From a virus (Duplodnaviria; Caudoviricetes): DNA of 61,280 nt. Under the pieces are notes generated by a model that saw only the letters and a program-made list of their open reading frames with translations, was not told where the DNA came from and ran no database searches. This document shows, piece after piece, positions 6,654 to 12,220 of the stretch. The translations under genes and the position numbers were made by a program. Numbering within the stretch: the stretch's first letter is position 1; each line of letters starts with the position of its first letter. Where the stretch lies: IMG/VR virus record IMGVR_UViG_3300034121_000204, positions 1 through 61,280 of that record; one strand, written 5' to 3'.

Positions 6654-8988
6654 CACATCAGCTCCTTATCATGTTGACGTAAGTGTTGCAATAGACAGAA
6701 TAAGAAATGGTAAGTCAAAAGAATTAGTTGAGGCTGTAAGGAATGAGACAGAGAAAGATAAAAGGAACGAAAAGAAGAAAAGACTTCCTGCTGTTTGTTT
6801 CTCAGGCACATTCTCACGCAGAGCTGACAATGCTATTATTGAGCATAGTGGGATTATATGCATAGACTTTGATGGATTCAGAGACGAGCAGCACTTATTC
6901 GCTAAACGTCAAGAGCTTGTTGACGATAACTACTCTTACTGTGTATTTACGTCACCATCTGGTGATGGTATTAAGGTGTTGGTAAGGATTCCAAAAGATC
7001 CTAAGAACCACAAGAAGTACTTTAATTCTTTGCAGAAGCACTACAACTGCGATGAGTTTGATGTTACTTGCAAGAACATTAGTCGTGTATGCTACGAGTC
7101 TTATGATCCTGACATTCATGTTAACGAGTTAGCATTGATATGGTCTGACATGGAAGGCTCTGATGATTATAAGCCAGCAGTTCGTCCGATGATAAAGGTT
7201 GACGACACCAACGAGATAACAAGACGTTTGACACTATGGTGGTGTAAGAACTACGGAATGATTCCTGGACATCGTAACAATAACTTGTATATACTTGCTT
7301 GTGCGTTTAATGAGTTTGGTGTTGACAAGCAGACAGCTAGGAGTATTATTGATGGTTACGACACTAACGGAGAGATGGCTAGAGAGATACCAACGTTGGT
7401 TGAAAGTGCGTACAAGAACACAGCTATACATAACACTAAGTTCTACGAGGACATTGACAAGACTGTCGCAATAAAGAACGACATAAAGGTTGGTGTACCT
7501 TTGGAGAATATACTAAAAGAATACACTAATGTACCTGCTGATGTTATTGAGCACATCAGTTCTGAGGAAGATCCGAATAGGTTCTGGACTAAATCATCTA
7601 AAGGTAAGATTGATCTAGTACCTCACTTGTTAAGAGACTACCTAAGTAACAATGGATTCTATAAGTACTACCCTGAGGGATCTAACAACTTTGTTTTTGT
7701 ACGTGTACATGACAATGTGATAAGCGACTCCAATGAGGAAATGATAAAGGACCACATACTGAGCTACTTGAATAACATCGGTGATATGTCAATCTATAAC
7801 TACTTTGCCATGAACACTAAGTTTTTTACAGAAAACTTTTTGAACTTTTTACCAAAGATTGACGCTAGGTTTATGACTGACAATTCAGAGACAGCATACC
7901 TATACTATAACAACTGCGCTGTAAAAGTAACGCGTAGAGGTGTTGAGAGTATTGACTACAAGGACTTGAATGGTATTGTGTGGGATGATCAAAAGATTAA
8001 ACGTGACTTTATTGAGTCATCATTTGTTGATTGTGAATTTAGAAAGTTCATAACAAACATTTCTGGTGATGACAAGGAACGTGTAAAATCAGTTGAGTCA
8101 ACGATTGGTTACTTGATGCATAGCCATAAGCCAGCAAGCTACTGTCCTGCTGTAATACTTAATGATGAGGTAATTAGCGATAACCCTGAGGGTGGAACTG
8201 GTAAGGGTATATTTGTTAAGTCTATCAGCCACATGAAGAAGATGGTTATAATTGATGGCAAGGGATTCAGCTTTCAGAAGTCGTTCCCATATCAGAGAGT
8301 TCAGGTAGACACTCAGGTACTTGTATTTGATGACGTTAGCAAGCACTTTGACTTCGAGAGGCTATTCTCTGTCATAACCGAGGGGATAACGCTTGAGAAG
8401 AAGAATAAAGACGAGATACATATCCCATTTGAGAGATCACCAAAGATTGTCATAACAACTAACTATGCTATCAAGGGAGCAGGTAACTCATTTGAGAGAC
8501 GTAAGTGGGACTTGGAGTTAAAGCAGTACTACAATAAATCATTCACACCTGAGACTGAGTTTGGTCACATGTTGTTCAGTGGATGGGATGAGTACGAGTG
8601 GAATAAGTTTGACAACTACATGATAAGTAACCTACAGTCTTACCTTAATAAAGGACTAGTGCGTAGTGAGTTCAAGAACTTAAAGACTCGTAAGTTTATT
8701 GCAGAGACAAGCTCTGACTTTTGGGAGTGGGCTGTATCAAATGATAACGTACATACCAAAGCTAAAATCAAGTCGCTAGGACAAGACTTATTTAATTCAT
8801 TTACGCAAGAGTATCCTGACTATGCTACTTATGGTAGGTTTAAAATATCACAGAACAAGTTCTATAGATGGATAGATAGCTACGGTGAGTTTGCATTTGG
8901 AACAAAGCCAGCTGTGTCAAGGACAGCACTAGGTAAGAACATTGAATTTATTGTAAAAGAGAACGAACAACTAAATCTTAAATTATGA
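6625..8988 (+). CDS. primase-helicase (VirE-N/BT4734-like primase, PriCT-like region, P-loop ATPase)
   Basis: KKRLPAVCFSG, IDFD, FTSPSGDGIK; GHRNNNLY; Walker A GGTGKG, Walker B LVFDD, ITTN. Confidence 0.85.
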   Translation: MITYFKSINDTSAPYHVDVSVAIDRIRNGKSKELVEAVRNETEKDKRNEKKKRLPAVCFSGTFSRRADNAIIEHSGIICIDFDGFRDEQHLFAKRQELVDDNYSYCVFTSPSGDGIKVLVRIPKDPKNHKKYFNSLQKHYNCDEFDVTCKNISRVCYESYDPDIHVNELALIWSDMEGSDDYKPAVRPMIKVDDTNEITRRLTLWWCKNYGMIPGHRNNNLYILACAFNEFGVDKQTARSIIDGYDTNGEMAREIPTLVESAYKNTAIHNTKFYEDIDKTVAIKNDIKVGVPLENILKEYTNVPADVIEHISSEEDPNRFWTKSSKGKIDLVPHLLRDYLSNNGFYKYYPEGSNNFVFVRVHDNVISDSNEEMIKDHILSYLNNIGDMSIYNYFAMNTKFFTENFLNFLPKIDARFMTDNSETAYLYYNNCAVKVTRRGVESIDYKDLNGIVWDDQKIKRDFIESSFVDCEFRKFITNISGDDKERVKSVESTIGYLMHSHKPASYCPAVILNDEVISDNPEGGTGKGIFVKSISHMKKMVIIDGKGFSFQKSFPYQRVQVDTQVLVFDDVSKHFDFERLFSVITEGITLEKKNKDEIHIPFERSPKIVITTNYAIKGAGNSFERRKWDLELKQYYNKSFTPETEFGHMLFSGWDEYEWNKFDNYMISNLQSYLNKGLVRSEFKNLKTRKFIAETSSDFWEWAVSNDNVHTKAKIKSLGQDLFNSFTQEYPDYATYGRFKISQNKFYRWIDSYGEFAFGTKPAVSRTALGKNIEFIVKENEQLNLKL

Positions 8989-9314
8989 AATACTGCGATG
9001 GATTAATTAAAAATAGGTTAGACTTTACCGAGAAGCTTCATGGATTCGCCAAGCATGGTACAAGAAGAAAAACTGAGCTTTCAAAGATGTGTAGAGACTA
9101 CAAGGAAGCTCATGACTATCTTACTGGTAAGATTGAAGCTGTATCTTTTGTTCCTGAGTATAGCATAAGAGAACTAAAGCGGCAGTTCCTTTGGTTGAAT
9201 TATGATCGAGAGCTTCACTCTGAAGCAATTGAGGAGATAGATTATTATGTAAATAAAATGAAAGAAGATGGAGCTAAGAGATTATCAGACGAGGATAGCC
9301 AATCAAGCAGTTGA
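8985..9314 (+). CDS. hypothetical protein
   Basis: 109-aa ORF coupled to the primase stop. Confidence 0.6.
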   Translation: MKYCDGLIKNRLDFTEKLHGFAKHGTRRKTELSKMCRDYKEAHDYLTGKIEAVSFVPEYSIRELKRQFLWLNYDRELHSEAIEEIDYYVNKMKEDGAKRLSDEDSQSSS

Positions 9315-10503
9315 CATACTTAAAAGACTTCATATTGTTTATATTGCAGCTATGGTACGTGTAGGAAAAACATTAATGGCTTTAGAAACAGCAAAACTAT
9401 ACGGAGCTAAACGAGTTTTATTCCTAACAAAAAAGAAAGCCATATCATCTATTACAAAAGATTATAATGAATTTGGTTATCAATTTGAATTGGTAGTAGT
9501 AAATGACGAGTCAATGCATAAGTTAGAAGATACTAACTATGACTTGGTTATACATGACGAGCATCACAGATTCGGATCATTTCCAAAACCAGGACTAGCA
9601 ACTAAGACATACAAGCAGATGTTTGGCAACAAGCCAATGATATTCTTGTCAGGTACAATGACACCAGAGTCATTCACCCAAGTGTACCATCAGTTCTGGG
9701 TATCACATCACAGCCCATTTAAACATTACGTCAACTTCTATAGATGGGCTGATGACTATGTAAATAAGTTTCAGAGAAATATTAACGGCTTCTTGGTAAA
9801 TGATTACTCTAAAGGAAATGAACTAAAAATAATGGTTGCTATTGCTCCTTATGTAATTACATTTACACAACAGCAAGCAGGCTTCTCTACTGAGATTGAG
9901 GAAGAGATATTGCATATCGCGATGAGCGATAAGACAAAGATGATTGTGAAGAAGTTGGAGAAGGACTTAGTTGTGGAAGGTAAGGATGAAGTTATATTGG
10001 CTGACACACCAGTTAAGCTTATGCAGAAGCTTCACCAGTTGTGGAGTGGTACTGTCAAGTTTGAGAGTGGCAACAGCATGGTTATCGACACTACTAAAGC
10101 TGAGTTCATAAAAGATAAGTGGCGCGACAATAAAATAGGCATATTCTATAAGTTTAAAGAAGAACTGAGCGCATTGAAGCAAGTGTTTGGTGACAGTCTA
10201 ACAACTGAGCTTGATAAGTTTGATAATGAAGGCTATCAGGTTATAGCCTTACAAATTATATCAGGTCGTGAGGGTATATCCTTAAAAAATGCTGAGTATT
10301 TGATTTTCTATAATATTGACTTTAGTGCAACTTCTTATTTTCAAGCGAGAGACCGTCTAAGTCACATGGGTAGGTTAAAAAATAAAATATATTGGTTGTT
10401 TAGTGAGGGTGGTATTGAGGATAAGATATATAAAGCTGTCAAGGAAAAAAAGAAATACACAGTAAATATATTTAAAAAAGATTATAAACACTTAAATATA
10501 TAA
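9268..10503 (+). CDS. SF2 (SNF2-like) helicase
   Basis: Q motif LRDYQ, VRVGKT, DEHH, LSGT, REGISL, QARDRL. Confidence 0.9.
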   Translation: MELRDYQTRIANQAVDILKRLHIVYIAAMVRVGKTLMALETAKLYGAKRVLFLTKKKAISSITKDYNEFGYQFELVVVNDESMHKLEDTNYDLVIHDEHHRFGSFPKPGLATKTYKQMFGNKPMIFLSGTMTPESFTQVYHQFWVSHHSPFKHYVNFYRWADDYVNKFQRNINGFLVNDYSKGNELKIMVAIAPYVITFTQQQAGFSTEIEEEILHIAMSDKTKMIVKKLEKDLVVEGKDEVILADTPVKLMQKLHQLWSGTVKFESGNSMVIDTTKAEFIKDKWRDNKIGIFYKFKEELSALKQVFGDSLTTELDKFDNEGYQVIALQIISGREGISLKNAEYLIFYNIDFSATSYFQARDRLSHMGRLKNKIYWLFSEGGIEDKIYKAVKEKKKYTVNIFKKDYKHLNI

Positions 10504-10508
10504 GAATT

Positions 10509-10712
10509 ATGAATAAAATACATAAACCTAAAGGATCACCAAGTCCTGAAGAAAGAGCGTATAGAATTATTACATATATAGGTCTCGATGCTGGTATTAA
10601 AGACGCAGTAAGAAACATAAGTGAAGTAATAAAAGAAGGCAATATAGAAAGGTCTCTTTATTATTATGAAGTTTTGTATCATTTAACAGTATTAAAAGTA
10701 GGAAAACAATAA
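10509..10712 (+). CDS. hypothetical protein
   Basis: 67-aa ORF; its TAA stop is the TAAC of attC-like site 1. Confidence 0.6.
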   Translation: MNKIHKPKGSPSPEERAYRIITYIGLDAGIKDAVRNISEVIKEGNIERSLYYYEVLYHLTVLKVGKQ

Positions 10713-10838
10713 CGTTTTGCGGCTTTGTGTCAGTGCCGTTTTTTAAACTGGTGTTTAATAATTAAAACAAAATAACAATGAAAACAGAAACTTCAAAAAT
10801 AGACAAAACTAAGGCATTGCATAAAGCCGATGTTAGGC
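10707..10838 (+). mobile_element. attC-like recombination site 1
   Basis: CAATAAC ... GTTAGGC ends; arms CGGCTTTGTGTCAGTGCC / GGCATTGCATAAAGCCG form an imperfect inverted repeat with an extrahelical base. Confidence 0.75.
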
Positions 10839-10987
10839 GTAGTGCCATCTTCAACTTAACAGATGTAGATAGATTAAAAAGGAGTGATAAACTTTGGAAG
10901 AAACTTTCAAAAGAACTTGATGTGTTACAAGACAATAACTATACAGCAAGGAAGTTGTTTGATTATGTGGAACGGCATTACGCCTAA
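10778..10987 (+). CDS. cassette-borne hypothetical protein
   Basis: 69 aa; starts in the loop of site 1 and stops in the TAAC of site 2. Confidence 0.65.
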   Translation: MKTETSKIDKTKALHKADVRRSAIFNLTDVDRLKRSDKLWKKLSKELDVLQDNNYTARKLFDYVERHYA

Positions 10988-11111
10988 CGGCAAAGCATTG
11001 GCGAAGGCGGGGATTTGTAGTACTACCGCTTGTTAATGCACAAATGATAAATTAAGTACTACCGTTGAGTAAAAGCACTTCTGCCCCGCTTTTGCCAATG
11101 CAATGTTATAG
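10982..11111 (+). mobile_element. attC-like recombination site 2
   Basis: GCCTAAC ... GTTATAG ends; arms GCATTGGCGAAGGCGGGG / CCCCGCTTTTGCCAATGC. Confidence 0.8.
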
Positions 11112-11122
11112 GGCGTTTATTT

Positions 11123-11377
11123 ATGTACGGATTTTTCAAATTACCAATATCAGATAAAAAAATGTCAAAGGTGATGTATGCACTTTTAAGGACACAAAGC
11201 AAATTAGTCAACTCATACAGCCATAGCATTAACCAATACGATAGAAAGCAAAGTAGTGGTTTCTTGGTTGATGTTGTTGTAGAAGTTGACGAGCATAAAA
11301 TAAAACAGTTTGAAGAATTGGCAGAAGTCAAACTACAAACGAGTGAGGATTTTCAGGGTAAAATGGTTGTTAACTAA
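11123..11377 (+). CDS. cassette-borne hypothetical protein
   Basis: 84 aa; fills the space between sites 2 and 3. Confidence 0.65.
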   Translation: MYGFFKLPISDKKMSKVMYALLRTQSKLVNSYSHSINQYDRKQSSGFLVDVVVEVDEHKIKQFEELAEVKLQTSEDFQGKMVVN

Positions 11378-11382
11378 ATGCC

Positions 11383-11434
11383 CTATAACAGTCGTACAGG
11401 CGATGGCTTTAGTCTCGCTTGTACTTTGTTATAT
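11383..11434 (+). mobile_element. attC-like recombination site 3 (short)
   Basis: CTATAAC ... GTTATAT ends; arms GTACAGGCGA / TCGCTTGTAC. Confidence 0.65.
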
Positions 11435-11441
11435 TTTTATT

Positions 11442-11449
11442 TACATTTG
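11442..11449 (+). promoter_or_regulatory. Bacteroidota -7 promoter box TACATTTG
   Basis: TAnnTTTG match just upstream of the VRR-NUC start. Confidence 0.55.
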
Positions 11450-11456
11450 TCAGTAA

Positions 11457-11726
11457 TTGGCAACAGAGCAGCAAATACAATCTAAATTAATCAAACAACT
11501 TGAGAAAGAAGGTTACTATGTGATCAAGCTCTCTGTCACCAATAAGACAGGTATACCAGACCTTTTAGCAATACCTAAGAACGCAGATGTGCACTTCATT
11601 GAGGTGAAGCGTCCTGGACAAAAGCCAAGACCTTTACAAGTATTCAGACTTAAAGAACTAAACAAGCATGGCGTTAAAGCAACAGTCTACGATGGTACAC
11701 AATTCTATAATGTTCCAGAAGAATAA
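11457..11726 (+). CDS. VRR-NUC domain nuclease (Holliday junction resolvase-like)
   Basis: EQQIQ, GIPDLL, FIEVKRPG, RPLQ. Confidence 0.9.
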   Translation: MATEQQIQSKLIKQLEKEGYYVIKLSVTNKTGIPDLLAIPKNADVHFIEVKRPGQKPRPLQVFRLKELNKHGVKATVYDGTQFYNVPEE

Positions 11727-12030
11727 GTATAGAATAAAAAAATTATGTGCCGAAGGGAAAACAATTAAACAAATAAGCTCGATAACAGGTGTCGCAGAAT
11801 ACATTGTTCAAAGAAACCTAAGAACAGCTATATCAACTCATTACGGAAACATAGAAATAGGTCATAAGGATGAGCCTTACTATGAAACCGAGGAAGAAAT
11901 GTTAAATGAAGTAGAATATAATTTTAATAATTTAAGCGATGGAGAAAAAGAGATCTATAACCAACGAGAAAAAGATGGTGAGCTTGGTAGGTATTTTACC
12001 AGTACTAATGGACTTTATGGAGGACATTAA
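11710..12030 (+). CDS. helix-turn-helix protein
   Basis: GKTIKQISSITGVAEYIVQRNL; likely start MFQKN at 11710 (track gives 11668). Confidence 0.55.
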   Translation: MFQKNKYRIKKLCAEGKTIKQISSITGVAEYIVQRNLRTAISTHYGNIEIGHKDEPYYETEEEMLNEVEYNFNNLSDGEKEIYNQREKDGELGRYFTSTNGLYGGH

Positions 12031-12220
12031 GGATGTGTATCCAAGAGTATACAGCAAGCAAATAAAGAAGGCAGGTAATGAATTTATTACCGAGGTATTG
12101 AAACACACCGATAATATTTACAAGAAAATGGAAATGGAAGATGATCAAGACTTGAGGGACTTCTATTACCAAGTAGATAGCTTTGGAATAGTATTTAGGA
12201 ACTGGTTAAAAGAATTGTAA
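11939..12220 (+). CDS. hypothetical protein
   Basis: 93-aa ORF in operon context. Confidence 0.55.
   Translation: MEKKRSITNEKKMVSLVGILPVLMDFMEDIKDVYPRVYSKQIKKAGNEFITEVLKHTDNIYKKMEMEDDQDLRDFYYQVDSFGIVFRNWLKEL

Follow-up and report, generated by a model that had tools for sequence, protein, structure and literature searches.

Could a recombination site write the beginning of the protein whose gene it accompanies? Integron-type sites are usually treated as non-coding punctuation behind genes. At the phage locus described here, the only ATG of a small ORF lies inside the loop of a hairpin that resembles such a site. We analyzed the whole of the virus record IMGVR_UViG_3300034121_000204 (the window), which is a complete record of 61,280 bp with direct terminal repeats and a G+C content of ~35%.

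A hypervariable stretch of small ORFs and hairpins

Between an SNF2-type helicase gene (9268–10503) and a VRR-NUC nuclease gene (11457–11726), the window contains a short hypervariable stretch, which consists of three small ORFs and the three imperfect hairpins that separate them, each opened by TAAC and closed by GTTA (Table 1). None of the three ORFs could be assigned to a known family in Pfam or PHROG, and the two neighbors of the central 69-aa ORF (10509–10712 and 11123–11377) had no relatives in the viral contigs. Among cultured phages, those of Flavobacterium and Cellulophaga come closest, with matches limited to single cassette genes. In Cellulophaga phage phi19:3, the homologue is flanked by tightly packed genes that leave no space for hairpins. 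In the RNA runs, the share of sampled words was 0.06–0.11.

We also observed a second kind of mosaic junction, free of hairpins, directly after the helicase gene. There, the window (10495–10515) and two other loci (L005:6225–6245 and L002:6515–6530) have differing first ORFs, which are joined at a common ..AATTATGAA.. around the start codons.

Table 1. Features of the hairpin-bearing stretch, in window positions.
Feature	Position	Strand	Details
TAAC, 5' (AAC-side) core of site 1	10710–10713	+	Overlaps the stop codon of ORF 10509–10712; left homology border with L035 and L036
5' arm of hairpin 1	10720–10737	+	18 nt; one bulged T; supplies the G of two G.T wobbles; found with the stem aligner
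Loop of hairpin 1	10738–10812	+	75 nt; A-rich leader 10760–10777, ATG 10778, codons 1–12
3' arm of hairpin 1	10813–10829	+	17 nt, coding: codons 13–18 (ALHKAD) with the 2-nt spacer 10830–10831
GTTA core (10832–10835) and extension	10832–10846	+	Codons 19–23, VRRSA; GTT 10832–10834 is codon 19, extension is RRSA (codons 20–23)
69-aa ORF, B69 family	10778–10987	+	Stop 10985–10987 inside the TAAC of site 2; codons 24–69 are the conserved body; 36 homologues
Extended AAC-side box of site 2	10974–10988	+	Encodes the last residues HYA and the stop; right homology border in all B69 contexts
Site 2 hairpin	10986–11107	+	18-nt arms, two G.T wobbles
Unit of hairpin 2 and ORF 11123–11377	10989–11389	+	401 nt, missing from a run X4 contig; equivalently 10985–11385, junction inside TAAC/TAAC
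Short hairpin of site 3, resident ahead of the VRR-NUC gene	11387–11430	+	Common to L002, L003, L005 and L007

The hairpin of site 1

A first-pass annotation, made from the letters of this DNA, had placed an A-rich leader and ATG 10778 in the loop of site 1 and had read the ORF from this single Met through the right arm and the GTT. The sequence and the ORF list agree with this description. The leader before the ATG contains no Shine-Dalgarno motif. Spacers of 6 nt (between TAAC and the 5' arm) and 2 nt (between the 3' arm and GTTA) set the stem apart from the two cores. The GTT-side segment 10832–10846 is complementary to 10974–10988 at 14 of 15 positions, and the start/end complementarity in the window also reaches 18/20.

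The folding energy of site 1 taken alone was not significant (z = −1.56; 15 of 200 shuffles folded equally well), and that of site 2 gave z = −2.0. We also used an ad hoc scanner for the arrangement AAC-spacer-stem-loop-stem-spacer-GTT. At a cut-off score of at least 14, it returned two matches in the 61-kb genome, site 1 (10711–10834) and site 2 (10986–11107), which lie 150 nt apart, and none in each of 20 shuffled genomes. The site class is thus local and exceeds what chance would give. Furthermore, in an alignment of only five homologous sites, 84.5% of the cells of the site 1 stem were paired, compared with 30–43% when the partners were slid, and six pairs were altered on both sides, a number that was reached in 2 of 500 shuffles. 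The pairing is thus maintained despite the 3' arm being coding. These comparisons indicate that the stem of the hairpin is kept by compensatory changes.

Across 12 stems of the site class, the mismatches on the strand of the gene comprised 15 G.T but only 1 C.A. Counting one stem per hairpin family, our own reading of the rows gave about 10 G.T and 0 C.A. This excess suggests that a single strand folds, either as DNA or as RNA.

In three of the seven DNA contexts of the 69-aa gene (L037, L039 and L040), the hairpin is weak or missing. In two of these, L040 and L039, the leader peptide is retained despite the lack of a proper hairpin, and therefore the peptide itself may face some constraint. 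The site hairpins matched no Rfam family at E ≤ 1. A search for terminator-like sites gave none, and promoter-like sites were no more frequent than expected by chance.

A small gene that probably starts in the loop

The ORF at 10778–10987 contains one Met only, which is the start at 10778. Near the 5' end, a TTG at codon 14 is the sole other in-frame start; it is not conserved (TTA in L038), and the alignment of the homologues contains no conserved alternative start downstream of the loop ATG. The predicted protein has 36 homologues with a strongly conserved C-terminal core of ~40 aa. In all six DNA homologues, the frame is open from the loop ATG. The rates of change in these six differ along the ORF: the loop codons 2–12 are neutral (pN/pS 1.06), codons 13–23 of the arm, box and extension have a pN/pS of 0.41 with lowered synonymous divergence (0.26 vs. 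0.58 in the body), and the body codons are under purifying selection (pN/pS 0.13). The AlphaFold model consists of two helices of moderate confidence, with low confidence for residues 1–20.

Among the 36 N-termini, as we read the alignment, about 22 carry a leader of the same type as that of hairpin 1 (H1), 3 have another N-terminus joined just before ADV, and 11 diverge further in. With profile A1, the genome contigs gave a single weak match in an archaeal MAG, which we regard as uninformative, and the viral contigs gave one relative without a hairpin. Separately, at L037:2350–2650, the 69-aa body stands on a different N-terminus of ~45 aa, with the junction 9–10 nt before the GTT and the hairpin absent; this fused gene sits directly upstream of a helicase homologue.

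Taken as a whole, these observations are probably best explained by a real small phage gene at 10778–10987, whose 5' third is written in an attC-like hairpin and whose translation is predicted. The reading frame also bears out the statement of the first-pass annotation that the site encodes the start codon and the N-terminal residues, about 18–23 of them.

One leader on unrelated bodies

The first-pass annotation had predicted leaders that end in ADV, together with the hairpin arm, on unrelated C-termini. In an exact search of the viral contigs with the 3' arm plus GTT, we obtained one match, L047, which bears an array of eight sites. At site C of this array, the arms are the same, the loop and leader (ending in ..KALHKADV) are homologous, and the sequence beyond the GTTA runs on into an unrelated protein of 113 aa, joined at GTT(A) as anticipated. 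Similarly, a search with residues 1–40 retrieved P0050, in which the first 15 residues are identical to the leader of the window and the rest is a third unrelated body; here the prediction holds at the protein level. The point of divergence lies at the GTTA box in L047, as read from DNA, and past the corresponding Val in P0050, as read from protein only. No relative of P0050 was found in the viral contigs.

The same bodies also occur without this leader. Of the 14 sequences in the family of the 113-aa body (B113), 3 have the H1 leader, 3 have other 19-aa leaders that also end in ADV, and 3 are leaderless with their own Met just before the conserved core; the remainder comprises 1 short sequence that begins within the core and 4 with other or longer N-termini. 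Relatives of the P0050 body (B57), including P0051, vary at the front: the leader is similar, different or missing, or the body is part of a large fusion. Leaderless bodies with their own ATG are P0044, P0045, P0047 and P0054.

Furthermore, a second hairpin allele precedes two different bodies, namely the 69-aa body in L038 and, at site s5 of L049, a membrane protein. The hairpin module of the window is 76% identical to that of L047, which has a different body, but only 53% identical to that of L038, which has the same body, although the L038 and window bodies are 76% identical over the next 40 columns. Hairpin and body identities are incongruent, and therefore the two have been re-assorted, with the break at or a few bases from the GTT(A). 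These alignments indicate that the leader-bearing hairpin is a separable module that heads at least three unrelated bodies, and that each of the three body families also has relatives with other leaders or with their own ATG. What such swaps produce is more modest than the new proteins that the first-pass annotation had expected from shuffling: the products differ only in the leader of ~20 aa, which is neutral (pN/pS 1.06).

Gain and loss on the AAC side

On which side of the hairpin do the exchanges occur? We compared contigs from four lake or freshwater DNA runs with window positions 9900–12100. One contig from run X4 (1752 nt, depth 8.9, 0–1 differences) joins 10984 to 11386, with the four letters of TAAC fitting both sides; this junction was seen in one contig from one of the four runs. 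Similarly, L007 differs from L002, L003 and L005 by an inserted hairpin plus DNA methyltransferase gene, which has TATAAC at its end and is placed directly behind a TATAAC. Both indels cut at the 5' TAAC, and therefore the hairpin and the gene downstream of it move as one unit. The resident hairpin remains beside the VRR-NUC gene under three different upstream neighbors, including the second ORF (ORF2) in the window.

The borders of homology around the 69-aa gene agree with this. Homology with L035 spans 10711–10990 and with L036 10709–10988, in both cases between the TAAC cores of sites 1 and 2, with different flanking genes on both sides. The genes upstream of the hairpin differ among the window, L035, L036, L038, L039 and L047, and the hairpins downstream of the 69-aa body are different in all four contexts that have one. 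Judged from these borders, the 69-aa gene appears to be a self-contained unit of roughly 275 nt (10714–10988), and in the recent events the hairpin seems normally to travel with the gene that it heads, in a mirror image of the integron cassette known from textbooks. However, L035–L040 were retrieved through homology to the 69-aa protein, so the linkage between hairpin and body is inflated by selection and yields no rates for the two kinds of event.

Events exist on both the AAC side and the GTT side; of the indels, the two that look most recent belong to the former. Leader swapping at the GTT looks rarer than AAC-side exchange in these comparisons. Because the motifs that hold borders of both kinds are short and conserved, recombination of the ordinary kind at microhomology is possible. 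The first-pass annotation had proposed that start-less modules are expressed as fusions to a peptide from the site, and had treated that site as an attC, which in the canonical reading would make hairpin 1 the 3' site of the upstream cassette. The first of these views stands in part, in that one leader does occur on unrelated bodies, but the AAC-side indels keep the hairpin with its gene. The second does not fit the events described above, as those in X4 and L007 cut at the TAAC 5' of the hairpin and the VRR-NUC hairpin is constant under its three upstream neighbors.

Several further observations concern the same stretch. In a contig from run X5, both arms of site 2 are present and the 66-nt loop (11012–11079) is exchanged for 30 other letters; the loop of site 2 appears to behave as a freely replaceable part. 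The X5 junction 10486→11384 is weak, its shorter side having only 24 letters. The 37 extra letters in it resemble a segment at L002:6690–6760, which is a nearly palindromic, ORF-free GTTAT...ATAAC of ~40 nt that looks like an empty body between two site remnants. A motif of ~16 nt (ACCCGATnnGGTATAA-like) occurs as two direct copies ~45 nt apart before the resident hairpin in L002 (~6770–6840), L003, L005 and L007, and a similar pair follows a hairpin-less relative of the 69-aa gene in L034 (~800–850).

At the other end of the cassettes, two unrelated proteins (L039:3245–3466 and the 69-aa protein, window 10974–10988) have near-identical DNA ends, ..GGCATT(A/G)C(G/A)(C/G)CTAAC, which yield ..RHCS* and ..RHYA*. 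Therefore, the AAC-side box sets the C-terminal residues and the stop codon too.

Other sites of the class

We collected 24 TAAC/GTTA sites from the window and six loci. At 12 of the 24, an ATG between the cores opens an ORF of at least 90 nt past the GTT, compared with 1 of 24 on the opposite strand. Two of the 12 were discounted: L047 4720, which overlaps a better ORF, and the start in L007, since a conventional start of the methyltransferase lies further along. The credible loop starts thus amount to about 10 sites in about 8 distinct combinations of gene and hairpin. The starts are confined to one size class: 10 of the 13 long sites (87–120 nt between the cores) carry a start, whereas none of the 11 short sites (at most 85 nt) has a credible one. 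Two frames relative to the GTT are used, and different proteins may read one and the same type of box in either of them.

The inverse core of attC sites is RYYYAAC. The core itself is given as GTTRRRY in PMC9892861. In our set, the boxes follow the 12-nt consensus (A/C)TTGCnnnTAAC and GTTAnnnGYWGT (24 sites), while the two canonical cores are found in 5 of 24 sites per side and on both sides in 1 of 24. Site 1 is itself mixed, as its GTTAGGC fits GTTRRRY and the CAATAAC on its AAC side misses RYYYAAC. Complementarity between the start of a cassette and its own end was also present in L038, L039 and L047, with 9–20 nt per body.

Some GTT boxes read GTTATG (L049:2952–2960, L049:4895–4903 and site H of L047, on the minus strand), which puts an ATG at the very beginning of the body, so that translation of these bodies could begin either there or in an upstream leader. 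Short hairpins with wholly different stems at L007:2735–2780, L035:~2634–2680 and L049:4256–4302 have the same 11-nt loop motif ending in ATG, and the L007 methyltransferase frame is open back to the ATG of that motif.

Search for a recombinase

Searches of the phage genome, which included PF00589 and PF01797, revealed neither a tyrosine recombinase nor a resolvase or Y1 transposase, and PF00589 had no match in seven related or array-bearing records. As no recombinase gene was found in the phage, the enzyme presumably acts in trans. At L049:1294–1760, the cassette array is directly preceded by a gene for a Y1 transposase of the IS200/IS605 type (PF01797, E 2.4e-33), which has a GC-rich terminal hairpin of its own. 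This gene apparently stands before an 88-aa cassette ORF, for which an intact leader hairpin was not found. We considered and rejected an IS200/IS605-type mechanism because the TnpA hairpin of L049 is of another kind and because neither the window nor the L047 record nor three relatives contain the Y1 gene. In addition, IS200/IS605 elements have subterminal hairpins at both ends, and the units described here have one hairpin each.

Discussion

How does this arrangement compare with known systems? Integrase-less attC clusters (CALINs) have been described in virulent phages, including a Polaribacter phage, together with several methyltransferase cassettes, by Qi et al. (2023, PMC9892861). As in attC arrays and CALINs, imperfect AAC...GTT hairpins divide single-gene cassettes at our locus, the cassette ends are complementary, and an integrase was not found in the phage. 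Likewise, the structure is conserved while the sequence varies (five sequences), as in attC sites, and the cassettes include one for a DNA methyltransferase (L007), like the phage cassettes of PMC9892861. On the other hand, the hairpin here appears to lie 5' of its own gene and the recent indels cut the AAC side, with GTT-side junctions also existing. Canonical cores are limited to 5 of 24 sites per side, and a 12-nt box with a variable central triplet is found instead. Finally, the long loops hold a start codon and the arms are predicted to be translated.

Coding within integron sites has precedents. ORF-11, ORF-17 and ORF-18 in attI1 span the crossover point, and short ORFs lie inside attC sites, according to a review (PMC8876359). 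Like them, the hairpin would provide a site-borne translation-initiation region whose frame crosses the crossover and which helps to express the cassette behind it; in attI1, the peptide ends in or just past the core and acts by translational coupling (PMC8876359). In contrast, the frame here runs for 50 more codons in phase into a conserved body, with the site-coded residues as the predicted N-terminus, and the site is an attC-like hairpin. A second precedent from the same review is aac(6')-Ib, whose cassette bodies carry borrowed N-termini set by the upstream context (PMC8876359); the bodies described here similarly have N-terminal residues that vary with what lies upstream. Unlike aac(6')-Ib, with its sporadic fusions to neighboring genes or attI, the leaders at about 10 of the 24 sites here come from hairpin loops that form a family dedicated to this role.

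Promoter-early stem-loops (PeSLs) mediate modular shuffling in T4-type phages. They resemble the present elements in that small accessory genes of a hyperplastic phage region are each headed by a stem-loop regulatory module that mediates shuffling. Unlike in PeSLs, the promoter signal here is not above chance, and the stems vary between sites while the cores are constant. Differing stems with constant cores suggest an exchange that is structure-specific rather than driven by homology. In the literature that we searched, we found no description of attC-type hairpin loops that give cassette genes an in-frame start and leader, nor of the same site-coded leader on unrelated bodies.

What kind of system could account for these features? 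As a tentative proposal, which we hold to be possible, phages of the Flavobacteriia type may run a hairpin-cassette system distinct from integrons, with 12-nt boxes peculiar to it, a hairpin placed 5' of each gene, exchange on both sides of the hairpin, and one class of hairpins that are portable modules of start codon plus leader. Whether or not the system is distinct from integrons, the sites would probably act as folded single-stranded DNA of the + strand, like integron attC sites, and the host or a related phage would provide the recombinase in trans. The usual event would be an exchange at AA↓C; a rarer exchange at G↓TT would re-attach a leader hairpin to another body. Long-loop hairpins would double as portable translation-initiation regions, from which a start-less body could be expressed if the frame fits.

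Could the hairpins instead be mainly RNA elements of 5' regions, serving in translation control or processing, with the modules swapped by ordinary homologous or illegitimate phage recombination at short conserved flanks rather than by a site-specific enzyme? The wobbles compatible with G.U on the sense strand only, the start codons inside the loops, the recombinase gene that was not found in the phage or in the seven related or array-bearing records, and the position of the borders in conserved motifs (the 12-nt box consensus) would all be expected from it. However, the complementarity between the first and last 9–20 nt of a body has no obvious RNA role and is predicted by a circular cassette intermediate. 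Moreover, the X4 junction shares 4 nt only, exactly within two site cores, neither an Rfam family nor a terminator-like site was found, and the same flanks occur on short hairpins without any ORF start. We therefore consider the RNA-element explanation unlikely.

The canonical integron explanation would assign hairpin 1 to the upstream cassette as its 3' attC, restrict crossover to G↓TT and have a start-less 69-aa body borrow the upstream leader; it appears very unlikely to us. It would account for the leader/body junctions at GTT(A) in L047, L049 s5 and P0050, for the complementarity of the start of each body to its own end, and for the canonical core GTTAGGC, but it is at odds with the behavior of the hairpins. 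Hairpin 1 is linked to no upstream gene in the six contexts compared (the window, L035, L036, L038, L039 and L047), the cuts of the X4 deletion and of the L007 insertion fall on the AAC side, the VRR-NUC gene keeps the resident hairpin in front of it beside three upstream neighbors, and the hairpins that follow the 69-aa body differ in 4 of 4 contexts having one. Finally, chance or mis-annotation, with a fortuitous hairpin and the true start elsewhere, has a near-negligible probability: the folding z-score of only −1.56 and the low-confidence N-terminus of the model are compatible with it, but the covariation of the stem, the scanner result of 0 in each of 20 shuffles, the frame open from the loop ATG in 6/6 DNA homologues, and the conserved VRRSAI.. 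upstream of any other conserved start codon argue against it.

On the reading that we favor, the site would be at once a recombination hairpin, a translation-initiation region and, with translation as predicted, the first fifth to third of a protein. Such a role for the start in the loop would explain why there are long (87–120 nt) and short (at most 85 nt) hairpin classes. It also offers a concrete mechanism for the expression of genes captured without a start, and it makes the strand and the side of the crossover in these phage arrays directly testable. For annotation, it carries a warning that N-termini common to small phage proteins can reflect the site and not protein homology. If the proposal of a distinct hairpin-cassette system is true, a portable start-plus-leader module could turn a captured start-less fragment into an expressed protein, which would give phages a route to new cassettes and to N-terminally re-headed proteins.
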